From a virus (taxonomy: Duplodnaviria > Heunggongvirae > Uroviricota > Caudoviricetes): a stretch of 8,521 bases of DNA. A program made the position numbers and the translations under genes. Below, in pieces: positions 835 through 8,521 of the stretch. The stretch's first letter is position 1. Every line of letters begins with the position of its first letter. Under the pieces are notes generated by a model. It had not been told where the DNA came from and ran no database searches. It saw only the letters and a program-made list of their open reading frames with translations. The stretch lies in the IMG/VR virus record IMGVR_UViG_2617270966_000007, one strand, 5' to 3'.

Positions 835-990
835 TTACTCCTCAGGTTCGTAAGCTGTGAAGACAGCGACCTCCGTCTGGCCGGTTCGGATTCGTACCTC
901 GCAGAGGTCTTTCCTCGTTACCAGTGCCGTCACCATGACGGTTAAACAGATGACGATCAGGGCGATTAGCATCGCCTTTTGCTGCTTCAT
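835..990 (-). CDS. hok: Hok/Gef-family membrane toxin (type I toxin-antitoxin toxin), 51 aa, HokD/RelF-like
   Basis: Translation MKQQKAMLIALIVICLTVMVTALVTRKDLCEVRIRTGQTEVAVFTAYEPEE has the Hok signature (single transmembrane helix then LTRKDLCEVRIRTGQTEVAVF) and closely matches HokD as recalled. SD AAGGAG lies about 9 nt upstream of the ATG at 990-988. Confidence 0.9.
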   Translation of the reverse strand: MKQQKAMLIALIVICLTVMVTALVTRKDLCEVRIRTGQTEVAVFTAYEPEE

Positions 991-1047
991 AGCCTGCTTC
1001 TCCTTGCCTTTCGGCACGTAAGAGGCTAACCTACGTGTGTAGAGCAT
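835..1047 (-). CDS. Mok-like in-frame upstream extension of hok (70 codons)
   Basis: ORF-track frame begins MLYTRRLASYVPKGKEKQA and continues in frame into Hok. Chromosomal mok reading frames (for example MokC) are N-terminally extended, in-frame versions of hok. Whether this one is translated is unknown. Confidence 0.4.
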   Translation of the reverse strand: MLYTRRLASYVPKGKEKQAMKQQKAMLIALIVICLTVMVTALVTRKDLCEVRIRTGQTEVAVFTAYEPEE

Positions 1048-1470
1048 AGATATGGCCTCAGATTAATGTTAAGCGTCTTGCAGGACGCGTAATGTTAACT
1101 GGGGCTTTTCTCTATCTGCCTTTGGTGTTCATGCCTGAGACAGATAGCCTCAAGCACCCGCAGCCATTCTACTTAACTCCCGTCACCTCGCCAATATGAA
1201 ATCAATCAGAAAGGCGATCCATAAGAACAACAGCAAGGCAATAAATTGCCATTACAGCAGCAATAGCCAGCGCACATTTGAGAACCAGCACCACAACCTC
1301 CTGTATTGGACGTACACCAGTCCTGATAAATATGAGGCTGTCTCGTCAGTGATTCAATACAACTATTGGGTATAGTTTCTGTGATTTTGTTCTGTAGAAA
1401 TGGAACACAACAACCAGTCACCACCAGCACTTCTTTAAATACGCCAAGTCCGACGCAAGCTAACCTTCTA

Positions 1471-1494
1471 GTCCGCTTTGAGCGAAAAGCGGAC
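1471..1494. repeat. Palindromic hairpin GTCCGCTTT-GAGCGA-AAAGCGGAC (copy 1 of 2)
   Basis: 9-bp perfect stem with 6-nt loop, about 60 nt downstream of the HAD stop. Shares the stem GTCCGCTT/AAGCGGAC with the element at 2937-2960. No U-tract on either strand. Confidence 0.5.
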
Positions 1495-1554
1495 GTTGGA
1501 AGTTTAAAACTCGCGAACTACTCAGCGTCCATTGATGCGTATTGTGTAACGTGA

Positions 1555-2199
1555 TTAACCACAGATGATATTGAAACGTTCTCCGGAAATCTTGACCATA
1601 ATGTCAGACAGCTCGCTGACGGCATGGGCTTCAGATGATCCCAGAGCGTCAGGCTGAACAGCTATTACCGAAGCTCCACTTGCCAGCCCTGCTTTTATAC
1701 CCGCAGATGCATCCTCAAATACCACGCATTCACCAGGCTCAAGGCCCAAAGCCAAAGCTGCTTTGATGTAACCCTCGGGACTTGGTTTTCCCGTCATTAC
1801 ATCTTCTGCACACACCATTACTATGGGTAAGGGGAGATTAGCCGCTTTCATCCTGTTTTCGGCAAGCATTCTGCCTGCAGAAGTAACAAGTGCCCAGCTA
1901 TCCGGTGGCAGTTTTGATAAGAGTGCAGCGGCCCCTTTTACTTCAGTAACGCCTTCTGTCGTGTTGATTTCAACCTCTTCGAGTGAGGCCGCGATTTTAT
2001 TGGTTTTCTCACCTGCACCAATAAAATGCGTCAGTGTATCAATCGTTTGCCGCCCGTGTGCGTAAGCAATCACAGCCTGAGTATCAAGACCGTATTCTGC
2101 ACAAAAATCTCTCCAGACGCTTTCCACTACGGCTGTTGAATCAACCAGCGTACCGTCCATATCGAATAAAAAACCCTTAGCGTTGAATATCATTGCCAT
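1555..2199 (-). CDS. HAD-superfamily hydrolase, subfamily IA (sugar-phosphatase / beta-phosphoglucomutase-like)
   Basis: HAD motif I FDMDGTLVDS near the N-terminus, motif III lysine in GKPSPEGY, motif IV FEDASAGIKAGLASG. The second ATG (2193) has better SD spacing (AGGA, about 6 nt) and may be the true start. Lies 24-30 nt downstream of the Nudix stop, so likely co-transcribed. Confidence 0.85.
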   Translation of the reverse strand: MAMIFNAKGFLFDMDGTLVDSTAVVESVWRDFCAEYGLDTQAVIAYAHGRQTIDTLTHFIGAGEKTNKIAASLEEVEINTTEGVTEVKGAAALLSKLPPDSWALVTSAGRMLAENRMKAANLPLPIVMVCAEDVMTGKPSPEGYIKAALALGLEPGECVVFEDASAGIKAGLASGASVIAVQPDALGSSEAHAVSELSDIMVKISGERFNIICG

Positions 2200-2222
2200 T
2201 CCTTAATGGTTGCAGAAGAAAG

Positions 2223-2861
2223 TTAATCAAACCATGTTTTTTCATCACCTTTCGCTACTCTCAGGCTGACAGCAATCTGCTCAGGCACAATTCTTGAAAG
2301 CGACAATTCAGGCAGGTCGTTGACATCAAAAAAATCAGCATCGAGTGACTCATGGCTGATTGACAGGCTGCCACCTACTTCTTCACAGAGAAAAATCAGC
2401 TTGTAAACATGCCAGGGTAAAGGCGGATGGCCGTGAAGATTACGATCCCAAACTCCCAATAGTTTAGTCACTCTGACTTTTAATCCGGTTTCTTCTTCGA
2501 CCTCTCGACGCACAGCTTCAGAAGGTGTATCTCCAACATCTGCCCATCCGCCAGGAAGACTCCATAATCCATCTGCAGCCTCTTTCACCATCAGAATACG
2601 ATTATTACGCAGGATAAACGCACGCACATCTGTTTTGGGCGTCGCGTAACCCGTTTCCGATACATGAAACAAATCATTGCGGCTAATATCAAACTGCGAA
2701 CTCAGCAGTCCAGCGGCAATTTCACGCAAGGCTTCATAGCGTTCCTTGTCAAAGACGTCTTTTGAATAGGTCAGGCCTGACTGCGCGAGGGCATTTAGTC
2801 TCTGGGCAACAAAAATAAGCTTTTCTTGGGTCAACACTTCAGACATGTTTTTCATCTTCAT
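2223..2861 (-). CDS. Nudix hydrolase with an N-terminal extension domain (ADP-ribose pyrophosphatase-like architecture)
   Basis: Nudix box GWADVGDTPSEAVRREVEEETGL (residues 105-127, plus 2481-2549) fits G-x5-(E/D)-x7-REVxEExGL. About 100 aa of N-terminal domain precede it. Start is ambiguous among ATGs at 2861, 2855 and 2846; none has a strong SD. Confidence 0.85.
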   Translation of the reverse strand: MKMKNMSEVLTQEKLIFVAQRLNALAQSGLTYSKDVFDKERYEALREIAAGLLSSQFDISRNDLFHVSETGYATPKTDVRAFILRNNRILMVKEAADGLWSLPGGWADVGDTPSEAVRREVEEETGLKVRVTKLLGVWDRNLHGHPPLPWHVYKLIFLCEEVGGSLSISHESLDADFFDVNDLPELSLSRIVPEQIAVSLRVAKGDEKTWFD

Positions 2862-2936
2862 TTATGTATTCAGAGTTCCTGTTAAGGATACTGCTCAATT
2901 CAATGAAGAATAACAAATGCATCTGGCACCTGCTAT

Positions 2937-2960
2937 GTCCGCTTCTGGCACAAAGCGGAC
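2937..2960. repeat. Palindromic hairpin GTCCGCTT-CTGGCACA-AAGCGGAC (copy 2 of 2)
   Basis: 8-bp perfect stem with 8-nt loop, about 68 nt downstream of the 141-aa gene stop and upstream of the Nudix gene. Same stem as 1471-1494. Confidence 0.5.
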
Positions 2961-3028
2961 AACCACGCTAGCTCTACCCTGTGCCACAAAATGTCAATTT
3001 GCATCTGAACTAATGCACTTTAATCTCG

Positions 3029-3451
3029 TCACTTCAATAAATACCGAACATCACCCTGATAAAACGACAATATGCGCTGCATAACTTCACTCTTCCGGCA
3101 CTCGCGACAGATTATGTTCATACGCCTGTCGTAGCGGCGTATTTCTCCGTCGGGTAATGTCCAGATAAGGTCAGGATCAACCACAGATGGTTTCTTCAGA
3201 TTTGCCCTTGAGAGTTTTTTGCGGGCGTTTTGCCAGTCCTTACGCGCCTGTTCAGACGGGAATAACCCGTAAACAGAGTTGTATACATCGCCACTGGCAA
3301 CCAGCTCTCTGGCGAGAACACTCATCAGATATCTTGTCGCACCTGTCTTGGCTTCCAGTTGCCGCAACGTCTCGCGACCGCTCAGACGTACAAGTTCAAC
3401 AACCTGCCCTTTAATTTTTTCCCGCTCTTCTTGTGTAAATACTTTTGCCAT
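3029..3451 (-). CDS. Hypothetical phage protein (140 aa), translationally coupled to the upstream 256-aa gene
   Basis: ATG at 3451-3449 (MAKVFTQEEREK...) preceded by GGAGG at about 7 nt. The ORF-track start at 3466 is a TTG inside the coupling region. Basic C-terminal half (RRYDRRMNIICRECRK). No family recognised. Confidence 0.6.
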   Translation of the reverse strand: MAKVFTQEEREKIKGQVVELVRLSGRETLRQLEAKTGATRYLMSVLARELVASGDVYNSVYGLFPSEQARKDWQNARKKLSRANLKKPSVVDPDLIWTLPDGEIRRYDRRMNIICRECRKSEVMQRILSFYQGDVRYLLK

Positions 3452-3466
3452 AAGCGCCTCCGGCAA

Positions 3467-4237
3467 TCACTTTTCCGATACAACACGGCGGGAAGAATCA
3501 GTAATCTGTCGAACAATATCCCGGTGCTTGTTCAGCTCCCGCAGCGCGGCGCAGACTCGCTCCCACTTCTGAACATCACTTTTCGCCCTGCGCAGCGCCA
3601 GGTTTGCCCTGCGAAGGGACGGAAAAATCAGCTCATCTGCTTGCGTTTCGGTAAACGATGGCAACGGCTGCACAATGTCCGCCACAGTTTCTGTTTTAAT
3701 TTCTTCCTGTGTTGCGGCTTCCCGGACTGGTAACGCAGCACCTGCTGGCTGAGGAAAGGCCTTACCATCACTTTCCGTTACCAGCGCGGCTTTCGGCTCT
3801 GCTGGTAAATTATCGCCCGGCATGCAGTAACGAAATTTACCGTTCTGATTAACGCGTGCCAGCCGCCCCGTTGCGGTTACCACCGCCAGCGTGGAAGCAA
3901 CCTTGCGAGTACTGACACCGAACTTACCCGCCAGTTCCTCACACGTTTTAGCCCCATCCTGACCGATAAACTCAATCATCATGTCTGCGGTAACTTTTTG
4001 TTCGACCTCCCCGGTCAGCATATCCTGTGCTTCAGATTTTACTGGCCGCTCTTCGGTTACCCGGGATTCACCTTCGCCAGCCAGAAACCAGGTGTGACCA
4101 GTTTTATCAACGACGCCATTTCTTTTGAGTTCCCACAGCTCGTTGACAGCCTCTTCACGACTGATTCCAAGGCGAGCTGCCACCACATGTGAAGAGGCTT
4201 TTTTCAGTGCTTTCAGTGCGTCAGATACGGTTTCCAT
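3467..4237 (-). CDS. Hypothetical phage protein (256 aa) with two tandem winged-helix-like DNA-binding segments
   Basis: Two segments resembling wHTH domains (SSHVVAARLGISREEAVNELWELKRNGVV and KTCEELAGKFGVSTRKVASTLAVVTATGRLARV). GGAGG SD about 8 nt before the ATG at 4237. Starts 21 nt after the DnaC-like stop. Confidence 0.65.
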   Translation of the reverse strand: METVSDALKALKKASSHVVAARLGISREEAVNELWELKRNGVVDKTGHTWFLAGEGESRVTEERPVKSEAQDMLTGEVEQKVTADMMIEFIGQDGAKTCEELAGKFGVSTRKVASTLAVVTATGRLARVNQNGKFRYCMPGDNLPAEPKAALVTESDGKAFPQPAGAALPVREAATQEEIKTETVADIVQPLPSFTETQADELIFPSLRRANLALRRAKSDVQKWERVCAALRELNKHRDIVRQITDSSRRVVSEK

Positions 4238-5011: not shown

Positions 5012-5974
5012 TCACCCCCTGAATCCCGGCGGTATTTCAGTGTCCGGTTCAGAAATGTGATTCACGCAACGCTGCGCAGGCGAACGCCCCAGGCGGATAA
5101 CCAGTTCATCCCATTTTTCCCGGAGTTTTGCCGGACTCATGATGTTTTTTACCCAGAACGAATCCCGCTGGAGACGCCCAAACATTTCACAAATTTGTCT
5201 GTGAGTTCTGCCATCCAGCATCCGCATTGTGCGAACGTCATTGGCCCATGCTGTCCAGTTGGGTTCTTTCGGTCTAGTGATCTCGCCATCATAGCTGGCC
5301 GCCTGCTCGTAAAGACTCACGATTCGTCCCCAGATCCACTGTGCGCACACCAAATCTTCCTGACTTCCCCACTGGCGTTTTTTCGCACTGAACACAACCG
5401 CGTCAGGGTGTCGGGTTAAAAAATCCTGTTCAGCCGTCTGCGGGTCCGGTTGCGAAGCGTCCGGACAAGAAGATCTTTTATCTGACGGTTCAGGTTTTAA
5501 TACTGACGGATCGGGGTCAATCATCGCCCCCCTAATCGGCAGTTTTTTATCAACAGTTGATCCATCAAAATTTGACGGGTCAACCGTTGAGGGGGCAAAA
5601 TTTGACGGGTCAACTGTTAACGGGTCATTTTTTGCCGGGCTAATTTTTCTTTTCGGTTTATATGACTCACGCGCCGCCGCCGCAGCTGCTTCGAGTTTTT
5701 CCACATTAAGCCGATAGATATTGCTTACATTACGCCCACCGACCTTACGCTCTTCCTTCGTCAGCCAGCCCTCTTTCGCCAGTTCTGCAATAGCCGATTT
5801 CACTGTGGATTCACTTCTTGCACCGATCTGACGCCGGATAGTTTCAATGGCAGGCCATGACACACCCTCGTCATTGCTGTAGTCTACAAGACGGGCCATA
5901 ACCGCCACCCTGGATAAGATCATGCCGGTGAAGGCGCACCCTTCCCAGACAAGACCATGAAGCTTGCTGCTCAT
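5012..5974 (-). CDS. Phage replication initiator (O-like / replisome organiser, YdaU-like) with N-terminal wHTH and an internal TVDPSNF repeat linker
   Basis: The ORF track starts at a GTG (5989); the first ATG is at 5974 (MSSKLHGLVWEG...) with a GGGGG SD. N-terminal HTH-like segment (VSWPAIETIRRQIGARSESTVKSAIAELAKEGWL). The central region encodes PLTVDPSNFAPSTVDPSNFDGSTVD from direct DNA repeats. Sits immediately upstream of the DnaC-like gene. Confidence 0.8.
   Translation of the reverse strand: MSSKLHGLVWEGCAFTGMILSRVAVMARLVDYSNDEGVSWPAIETIRRQIGARSESTVKSAIAELAKEGWLTKEERKVGGRNVSNIYRLNVEKLEAAAAAARESYKPKRKISPAKNDPLTVDPSNFAPSTVDPSNFDGSTVDKKLPIRGAMIDPDPSVLKPEPSDKRSSCPDASQPDPQTAEQDFLTRHPDAVVFSAKKRQWGSQEDLVCAQWIWGRIVSLYEQAASYDGEITRPKEPNWTAWANDVRTMRMLDGRTHRQICEMFGRLQRDSFWVKNIMSPAKLREKWDELVIRLGRSPAQRCVNHISEPDTEIPPGFRG
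5544..5621. repeat. Iteron-like direct repeats (30-bp period) with adjacent AT-rich stretch inside the O-like gene: putative replication origin
   Basis: CAAAATTTGACGGGTCAACCGTTGA (5566-5590) and CAAAATTTGACGGGTCAACTGTTAA (5596-5620), plus a partial third copy TCAACAGTTGA (5550-5560). Each contains a TCAAC-N-GTTGA inverted core. Followed by the AT-rich run cattttttgccgggctaatttttcttttcggtttatatga (5626-5665). Confidence 0.45.
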
Positions 5975-6756: not shown

Positions 6757-6824
6757 ATATTAGGCTTAGCCTAATGCAATTGTCAATAGGCTAAGCCTAA
6801 TCCATCGAGAGTAGGGATTGCCTA
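6757..6824. promoter_or_regulatory. OR-like operator cluster (three 13-bp operators) with divergent PR (minus strand) and candidate PRM (plus strand)
   Basis: Operators TAGGCTTAGCCTA (6761-6773), TAGGCTAAGCCTA (6787-6799), TAGGGATTGCCTA (6812-6824), centres 26 and 25 bp apart. PR on the minus strand: -35 TTGACA (6786-6781), 18-bp spacer, -10 TAATAT (6762-6757). Candidate PRM: -35 TTGCCT (6819-6824), -10 GACTAT (6842-6847), which would start transcription at about the repressor ATG. Confidence 0.6.
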
Positions 6825-7366: not shown

Positions 7367-7425
7367 TAGTTAACTCCTACTACCTCTCCCACAAACCATC
7401 ACCTATTAGGTCGCGCCCAGATTAT

Positions 7426-7467
7426 TAGGCATAGCCTATTGACAAGTAATTAGGCATTTCCTATAGT
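7426..7467 (+). promoter_or_regulatory. PL-like early promoter with two operators (OL-like)
   Basis: -35 TTGACA (7439-7444), 17-bp spacer, -10 TATAGT (7462-7467). Operators TAGGCATAGCCTA (7426-7438, abutting the -35) and TAGGCATTTCCTA (7451-7463, covering spacer and -10). Mirror image of the PR arrangement. Confidence 0.6.
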
Positions 7468-8259: not shown

Positions 8260-8521
8260 GGTAGTGACTCCAACTTACTGATAGTGTTTTATGTTCAGAT
8301 AATGCCCGATGACCTTGTCATGCAGCTCCACCGATTTTGAGAACGACAGCGACTTCCGTCCCAGCCTTGCCAGATGTTGTCTCAGATTCAGATTATGTCG
8401 CTCAATGCGCTGAGTGTAACGCTTGCTGATAACGTGCAGCTTTCCCTTCAGGCGTGATTCATACAGCGGCCAGCCATCCGTCATCCATACCACGACCTCA
8501 AAGGCCGACAGCAGGCTCAGA
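8260..8521 (-). mobile_element. IS1 insertion sequence, partial (right end with terminal inverted repeat; continues beyond window)
   Basis: Terminal inverted repeat GGTAGTGACTCCAACTTACTGATAG starts at 8260 and resembles the IS1 IR as recalled. The interior encodes the InsB C-terminus on the minus strand. Confidence 0.9.
8275..8521 (-). CDS. insB: IS1 transposase InsB, C-terminal part (CDS continues beyond the window edge)
   Basis: Translation ...[71 protein letters not shown] matches the IS1 InsB C-terminus as recalled. The stop codon lies inside the terminal IR. Confidence 0.9.

Follow-up and report, generated by a model that had tools for sequence, protein, structure and literature searches.

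The closest described counterpart of the sites reported here lies in the Z region of P2-like phages. In the GenBank records for the 'proviral Z-region' of P2-EC30, P2-EC31, P2-EC46 and P2-EC58 (AJ512676, AJ512677, AJ512680 and AJ512683), left and right inverted repeats are annotated around foreign open reading frames (ORFs), and the cargos differ among these phages. The title of the 2004 study by Nilsson, Karlsson and Haggard-Ljungquist, to which records AJ512676-83 belong, ascribes the Z-region insertions to site-specific recombination. Two large recent surveys of P2 and P4 hotspots treat the passage of cargo between unrelated elements as an open question, with transposons absent, flanking homology lacking and experiments needed, and they make no mention of hairpins, palindromes or inverted repeats (PMC9122126, PMC13586616). 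Here we analyzed an 8,521-nt stretch of phage DNA, referred to as the window (IMG/VR record IMGVR_UViG_2617270966_000007), which is part of a Rac/Qin-type lambdoid prophage of Escherichia coli (E. coli). We found that two palindromes in this window, E (1471-1494) and W (2937-2960), bound a two-gene NUDIX-HAD cassette and correspond to the sites annotated in the P2 records. Our literature search returned no description of these sites besides the title and records of the 2004 study, and the sequence strings matched only unrelated primers.

Both window sites follow one plan, arm(9)-core(6)-arm(9), in which the core is asymmetric and the arms have the consensus GTCCGCTTT / AAAGCGGAC. E consists of an outer, backbone-side arm (GTCCGCTTT, 1471-1479), the core GAGCGA (1480-1485) and an inner, cargo-side arm (AAAGCGGAC, 1486-1494), and W of an inner, cargo-side arm (GTCCGCTTC, 2937-2945), the core TGGCAC (2946-2951) and an outer, backbone-side arm (AAAGCGGAC, 2952-2960). 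Between them lies the cargo segment (1495-2936, minus strand), which holds genes assigned through Pfam to a HAD-family hydrolase (1555-2199, minus strand) and a NUDIX hydrolase with a Nudix_N domain (2223-2861, minus strand). The two palindromes are inverted copies of each other: the loop TGAGCGAA agrees at 5/8 positions with the reverse complement of the other loop, TGTGCCAG, and the E core differs at 2 positions from the reverse complement of the W core (GTGCCA). E and W are thus inverted variants of one site type, GWGCSA, which a repeat search returned as 46-nt inverted arms (1458-1503 and 2928-2973). Two inverted arms around an asymmetric centre of 6-8 bp form the layout of a tyrosine-recombinase core site, and the 9-6-9 plan with its two core types has this layout.

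The same anatomy is present in the P2 records, where the cargo-proximal 24 nt of the annotated repeats are the W and E sites. The left repeat ends ...CTGACA GTCCGCTC-TGTGCCA-GrGCGGAC (W type), and the right repeat starts sTyyGyTy-yTCGCTCA-AAGCAGAC TGTCAG (E type). Arms and cores in the window match those of the P2 repeats, and the window W site is identical to the cargo-proximal end of the P2-EC 'left inverted repeat'. In P2-EC58 (locus L131, 92-115) and UMNF18 (locus L129, 5172-5200), the TGACA/TGTCA extension also occurs on the cargo side, giving arms of 13-14 nt; the full arm may be longer than 9 nt in some lineages.

An initial annotation of the window had judged a chance recurrence of the palindrome very unlikely, and our controls bore this out. 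We found GTCCGCTTTGAGCGAAAAGCGGAC at 1471-1494 and GTCCGCTTCTGGCACAAAGCGGAC at 2937-2960, confirming two 24-nt copies at the positions first given, and the pattern GTCCGCTT-N4-12-AAGCGGAC had exactly 2 matches in the window. Shuffling that preserved dinucleotides gave a mean of 0.00 matches over 200 replicates, none of which (0/200) reached 2 matches. The bare 8-mer, with 1 mismatch allowed, showed no enrichment in the window; the signal therefore resides in the palindrome pair. The distances described at first were also accurate, with the first hairpin 61 nt past the HAD stop (1555) and the second 69 nt past the DUF977 stop (3029). However, the second hairpin lies between the DUF977 stop and the NUDIX start (2861), 76 nt upstream of the latter, and so the pair brackets the NUDIX-HAD unit. 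The description of each hairpin as following a minus-strand operon must accordingly be replaced: the pair instead flanks one NUDIX-HAD cassette.

The limits of this cassette are seen directly when it occurs elsewhere. A megablast search of phages with window positions 1100-3500 revealed 99.3% identity to the P2-like phages 10W/P24C9 over query positions 371-1861, which correspond to window 1470-2960, from hairpin to hairpin. In 10W/P24C9, the cassette sits between the tail genes gpG and gpFI, the classical variable Z/fun locus. Overall, we found the NUDIX-HAD cassette at an identity of at least 99%, hairpin to hairpin, in four unrelated backbones: the Rac-type hotspot between hokD/sok and DUF977 (lygF), where it is present in 17 complete E. 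coli genomes; the Z region (G-FI) of P2-like phages; a degraded island adjoining paoD/ykgJ; and an island adjoining an integrase. Identity was 99.3-99.7% for the copies in 10W/P24C9 and the two chromosomal islands. In alignments of the four backbones, the inner arms and cores were identical and the outer arms were backbone-specific, reading GTCCGCTTT / GTCTGCTTG / GTCTGTTAT / GTCTGCTAT at E and AAAGCGGAC / AGAGCGGAC / AGAGCAGAC / TAAGCAGAA at W. A second cassette is shared in the same manner, with P2-EC30 ORF1 and a Rac-type locus 99.7% identical over 1876 nt, again from hairpin to hairpin. The two hairpins are the exact boundary sites of the NUDIX-HAD cassette. Phage 11W, considered as a carrier of a different cargo, proved to have this same cassette in a copy that is N-rich and of low quality, and a plasmid search with the cassette yielded short flank matches only. 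The motif TCTGGCAC occurs twice, 23 nt apart, at 2945-2952 (in the W loop) and at 2922-2929 (in the cargo just upstream), and the latter copy belongs to the cassette in 4/4 backbones.

The converse arrangement, in which one backbone holds many cargos, was equally informative. A scan of IMG/VR with the Rac-type backbone flank gave 126 loci; the DNA enclosed by E and W in these loci represents at least 24 distinct cargos, 224-6715 nt in length. Among phages and prophages with the same lambdoid backbone, phage Evi carries an acetyltransferase and a regulator between the two hairpins, LF82 an FRG-domain protein, ST2350 three genes of unknown function and UMNF18 an unknown protein of 269 aa, and several strains carry QueH with one hairpin half deleted. 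Cargo genes face either way relative to the sites, and the E...W orientation of the sites themselves is fixed across loci. In the Rac-type loci, the first 15 positions of E (GTCCGCTTT plus GAGCGA) are invariant, with an entropy of ~0; entropy jumps at position 16, the first base of the inner arm, which is moderately variable, and reaches ~2 bits in the flank. W mirrors this pattern, with a variable inner arm followed by invariant TGGCAC and AAAGCGGAC. Internal sites within large cargos are junctions too: one 3.65-kb right module is found with four different left modules, the join falling at an internal W site. Together, the four-backbone and constant-backbone data confine every informative junction to the 6-7 nt core. 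The proposal that the hairpins are recombination scars that brought in the cargo, one of several offered at first, is strongly supported by the exact hairpin-to-hairpin homology to P2 phages and by the range of cargos between the same hairpins. Likewise, the motif does mark cassette boundaries in related phages, as it had been suggested it might.

Cassettes also occur in arrays, with a W-(15-18 nt)-E doublet between one cassette and the next. This arrangement, E-cargo-W-(15-18 nt)-E-cargo-W, was seen in P2-like phages, beside a umuC-like gene and in Klebsiella (locus L044, 1361-4433; L105, 4169-7338; L175, 5638-5703), and one Rac-type locus (L259) holds three cassettes. The array cargos comprise SDR plus LysR, NmrA plus HxlR, glyoxalase and DUF262-like defence genes. 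This content, which mixes metabolic and regulatory genes with defence genes, recalls that of integron cassettes.

Stable intergenic hairpins after stop codons could, alternatively, act in RNA only, as terminators, Rho pauses or RNase-protective or processing stem-loops, in which case their recurrence would reflect common descent of the flanks. Both hairpins indeed fold stably as RNA or DNA (9 bp and a 6-nt loop for the first; z-scores of -2.4 to -4.2; -16 to -21 kcal/mol with flanks), and in other members of the family (loci L080 and L063) a T-run follows the hairpin. In the window, however, no T-run lies within 10 nt of either hairpin on either strand, and a terminator and promoter scan called neither hairpin, its counts equalling the shuffle expectation; the initial statement that the hairpins lack a U-tract and are not canonical terminators therefore stands. 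An Rfam search of the window at E <= 1 gave no match at the hairpins, the only matches being sok, a sub-threshold isrK-like match and a spurious snoRNA.

The two arms of a site, moreover, do not vary together. Across 155 distinct sites, the two arms of a site were no more complementary to each other than arms paired at random (p 0.15-0.56). We counted 26 T-G and 20 C-A combinations at the main polymorphic pair but only 2 of the compensated T-A, and many junction copies have mismatched or non-pairing arms. The lack of arm-arm covariation indicates that the arms behave as independent half-sites that match a consensus, as predicted by a protein-bound core site and not by a selected hairpin. In addition, the loop sequences are kept across unrelated flanks, the cargo orientation is arbitrary and the homology breakpoints coincide exactly with the sites. 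The boundaries and terminators of lambdoid morons are likewise GC-rich intergenic stem-loops at the edges of accessory genes, but the window sites differ from lambdoid terminators in having no U-tract, in their conserved loops and in the presence of a site at both ends whatever the gene direction. These data point to a role at the level of DNA rather than RNA. We regard elements acting purely in RNA as very improbable, and RNA stability or processing hairpins and Rho pause sites, which the initial annotation had listed, find no support in the mismatched, non-covarying arms and the arbitrary cargo orientation. The protein-binding palindrome on the same list may hold, in the sense of a recombinase core site.

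The sites combine inverted arms and an asymmetric core that contains the junction with two core types and a fixed orientation; this is the layout used in recombinase-mediated cassette exchange, and it is on this basis that we propose such an exchange. With moderate confidence, we consider E and W to be the boundary sites of a mobile cassette in the hokD/sok-DUF977 hotspot, where cargo is replaced via the core through cassette exchange by a recombinase acting in trans. Breakage and rejoining inside the core would replace the cargo, such that the outer arm remains with the backbone and the inner arm moves with the cargo. Because the E and W cores differ, two co-resident elements would probably exchange at both sites, E recombining with E and W with W. 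With the recombinase supplied in trans, this would be the natural equivalent of recombinase-mediated cassette exchange, and hotspots would be swapped but never emptied. In exact-pattern scans of 2.9 million IMG/VR viral contigs, we found no fused, single-hairpin 'empty' site in either the Rac-type or the P2-type backbone, which is what an exchange-only process predicts. We infer conservative site-specific recombination rather than short-homology recombination, an enzyme of the tyrosine-recombinase type, and exchange as the normal outcome.

Two apparent empty sites were evaluated and set aside. The Yersinia phages P37 and GMS190, which have the only empty P2 Z regions and were considered as a single-hairpin ancestor, lack the sites wholly, with G followed directly by a terminator. 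BL21/T7Express, considered as an 'empty' Rac-type site, carries a deletion that joins the 3' end of a shortened DUF977 gene to a small membrane ORF (locus L125, 1620-1700), the counterpart of window ~1203-1296, and is not informative. The inner arms of one cassette, which would form a hairpin of their own if the cassette were circular, were not significantly complementary to each other (p = 0.14).

Several observations weigh against exchange by a recombinase in trans. We found no recombinase in the window or consistently near the sites, and no circular cassette or excision product was seen. Many inner arms are degenerate (for example ACTGTGGAA and GACTATATT), and some of the junctions with such arms may be dead ends. 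Every informative junction lies after the final base of the outer arm and before the first base of the inner arm, but the core is invariant and the exact cuts are not visible within it; the crossover can be placed no finer than these 6-7 nt, and a junction within a short invariant segment also fits homologous exchange. A small FimB/E-like tyrosine recombinase beside doublets (locus L121) was considered as the enzyme and rejected, as homologues were present in only 4 of ~130 alphaproteobacterial loci, a non-significant association where the hairpins themselves occur ~1 per kb.

The fit to homologous exchange leads to the main rival explanation, recombination through short homology. Here E and W would be kept for another reason, such as transcriptional insulation or protection of mRNA 3' ends; RecA or a phage annealing recombinase (RecET of Rac, Red of lambda) would occasionally recombine the identical 24-nt stretches, and the rare products would spread where a new cargo is selected for. 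Rac-type and lambdoid phages do carry recombinases of the RecET/Red type, and temperate phages are documented to recombine with defective prophages through relaxed homologous recombination (PMC3945230). A 2026 study in Nucleic Acids Research also counts homologous and illegitimate recombination among the candidate mechanisms (PMC13586616). Our data disfavour this explanation. Unrelated backbones have only ~24 nt in common, within which the arms are mismatched (compare GTCTGTTAT with GTCCGCTTT), and the cargo-side flanks are unrelated (~2 bits), yet all informative junctions coincide. Short homology also leaves unexplained why P2-like phages, lambdoid prophages and islands all have the same 9-6-9 site and why the E...W orientation is fixed. 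We therefore consider this alternative unlikely, although it retains more weight than a reading we would dismiss, and we continue to favour site-specific exchange through the core.

The strongest caution against reading E and W simply as recombinase sites comes from outside these hotspots. In a scan of species-representative genomes, the W-type hairpin was present in several Enterobacterales (Pantoea, Klebsiella, Citrobacter, Leclercia, Mixta, Enterobacter and Phytobacter), and, unexpectedly, very many copies were found in Xanthobacteraceae, Pseudolabrys and other Hyphomicrobiales. The Hyphomicrobiales hairpins, with GTCCGCTT/AAGCGGAC arms and a TGGCAC core, occur at ~1 per kb (loci L136-L255; for example L142, 736-6882; L150, 626-740; L138, 240-354), and one of them is identical at 24/24 positions to an enterobacterial W site. 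They often form triplets at a 21-nt spacing, in which a hairpin with the loop TTGGCACA or TTGGCCCA is followed by TyGGGGGTA and then by TTGACCCA, an arrangement resembling that of REP (repetitive extragenic palindromic) sequences and BIMEs. This abundance fits poorly with active recombination sites and hints at another or an additional role; the family could reflect a shared binding protein, an origin of the HUH/RAYT type or convergence.

Such a family is what one might expect of a single-strand hairpin element mobilized by an HUH/Y1 enzyme (RAYT/REP-like, IS200/IS605-like or IS91-like), which would nick the loop and transfer the segment between the loops. Folding predictions for the W-linker-E doublets give a single long, imperfect, REPIN-like hairpin (-39.7 kcal/mol, z = -4.2), a further point that counts against our proposal, and the junction maps to the loop. 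HUH enzymes, such as the rolling-circle Rep proteins, commonly nick in a loop. On the other hand, an element that depends on its hairpin sits poorly with the lack of arm covariation and with the many junction hairpins that have C-A mismatches or no pairing arm. The conserved GTAG of classical REPs is absent beside the window sites, IS200/IS605 elements are cleaved outside their hairpins and not in the loop, and no Y1/HUH or RAYT gene turned up in analyses that included no search aimed at RAYT. Mobilization by an HUH enzyme is in our judgment improbable, and less favoured than crossing over in short homologies.

The doublets also bear on a comparison with integrons, in which E and W would be attC sites recombined by the IntI integrase. 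The layout resembles a cassette array, with an imperfect palindrome between cargos, the doublet folds as a stem, internal mismatches, a second stem and a terminal loop, and the cargo-side flanks are often AAC / GTT. The sites, however, measure 24 nt as compared with 57-141 nt for attC and have no RYYYAAC / GTTRRRY boxes. Both ends of the cassette are junctions, whereas in integrons the whole attC travels with its cassette, and the window contains no intI, attI or Pc. The attC reading is largely refuted by this anatomy, and we give it almost no credence.

The 8.5-kb window is 100% identical to E. coli strain MLI121. The minus strand codes for a Cro-like regulator, a cII-like protein, an O-like initiator with internal iterons and a DnaC-like loader. 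On the W side, the hotspot is bordered by a DUF977 family protein (3029-3466, minus strand; Pfam), named LygF in annotations of Rac-type phages, beyond which lies a DUF1627 protein (3467-4237, minus strand; Pfam). On the E side, the border is the hokD/sok type I toxin-antitoxin locus (835-1159, minus strand), where Rfam sok scores 114.7 bits (E = 3e-26); hokD is annotated at the equivalent position in related backbones. This locus has a canonical intrinsic terminator at 749-766, which overlaps the sub-threshold isrK-like match at 745-826 on the minus strand (27 bits; gathering score 50). Between the E site and hok/sok, a small hydrophobic ORF (...VVLVLKCALAIAAVMAIYCLAVVLMDRLSD*) preceded by AGGAGG occupies ~1203-1296 on the minus strand. 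Within the cassette, the NUDIX protein has a weak match to PDC-S07 in PADLOC.

Further repeats lie in the right part of the window. Inside the O-like initiator gene, at 5550-5639, there are 4-5 iteron-like, partly palindromic repeats (TCAACnGTTGAnGGG / AAAATTTGACGGGTCAAC) with a 15-nt period, which are probably the prophage origin. Four copies of a 16-19 nt palindrome of the ATTAGGCTTAGCCTAAT type, at 6758-6802 and 7423-7464, overlap strong sigma-70-like promoters (11/12 and 10/12 matches) and look like operators flanking a gene for a 158-aa repressor-like protein. At its right end (8262-8521), the window enters what we take to be IS1, with a sequence resembling a terminal inverted repeat (GGTAGTGACTCCAACTTACTGATAGTG) and an ORF for the C-terminal part of InsB (8275-8493, minus strand).

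Phage and satellite hotspots hold much of the anti-phage and accessory repertoire, and the E/W pair offers a molecular handle on how their cargo is swapped. We put forward only tentatively the broader view that E and W represent an uncharacterized, integron-independent cassette-exchange system of Enterobacterales, with two heterospecific 9-6-9 sites and a recombinase in trans. If this view is correct, P2-like phages, lambdoid prophages and islands would swap accessory and defence cargo precisely and with no empty state, which would explain the rapid, scar-free turnover of phage hotspots. Were the enzyme to be found, the system would also be a natural tool for cassette exchange. Should short-homology recombination be responsible instead, the sites would still serve as precise markers that delimit cargo in prophage annotation.

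Among known recombination systems, cassette exchange at lox or FRT sites offers the nearest parallel in layout. There too (Cre/loxP, 13-8-13), inverted arms surround a short asymmetric core and two core types flank the cargo; only the inner arm moves with the cargo, whose replacement involves neither a change of orientation nor an empty intermediate, as we propose for E and W, which differ in having 9-nt arms and a 6-nt core. To our knowledge, E and W show no sequence similarity to loxP, FRT or dif and have no known cognate recombinase. Analogies to gyrase sites, XerCD/dif and protelomerase targets were likewise dropped, as the sites are not known to resemble those sequences. The pdif modules of Acinetobacter plasmids offer a parallel in organization: small cargos lie between inverted, ~28-nt arm-core-arm sites for XerC/XerD in many unrelated backbones, and the modules move by an enzyme supplied in trans rather than by a recombinase of their own. 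The E/W arms (…CTTT / AAAG…) are unlike the XerC/XerD arms (…ATAA / TTAT…), however, and the hosts and elements differ.

Other likenesses concern single features. REP/BIME/REPIN sequences are short palindromes that occur singly or as inverted doublets forming one hairpin, as E and W do, but the latter have no GTAG, and in Enterobacterales they are seen only at the cargo boundaries of mobile elements and are not dispersed. In the sfx sites of IncI plasmid shufflons, the 7-bp core GTGCCAA separates a conserved arm from a non-conserved one (PMC4176322). On its opposite strand, W has an sfx-like core at 2946-2951, GTGCCA(A/G), which is GTGCCAG here and GTGCCAA in many copies, together with one conserved and one variable arm. 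The conserved sfx arm TCCGGTACGTGG (12-nt form, TCCGGTNNNTGG) is nonetheless unrelated to AAAGCGGAC, and its recombinase Rci only inverts; the match between the cores may be coincidental.

The P2 Z region, in contrast, has the same sites, variable foreign ORFs and, in 10W/P24C9, the very same cassette. The locus in the window differs from it in position and context: it is not at G-FI but in a lambdoid prophage with O/DnaC-like genes, hokD, DUF977 and DUF1627, where the pair lies between hokD and DUF977. Furthermore, the P2 repeats extend outward by CTGACA/TGTCAG and ~70-90 nt, and the lambdoid backbone is without this extension. The window provides a further example, from the hotspot of a lambdoid prophage, of boundary sites whose first annotation was in the P2 Z region. 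To that precedent our analysis adds the 9-6-9 anatomy, the mapping of the junction to the core, the finding that four backbones share identical cassettes, the arrays of several cassettes and the prediction that cargo is exchanged only.

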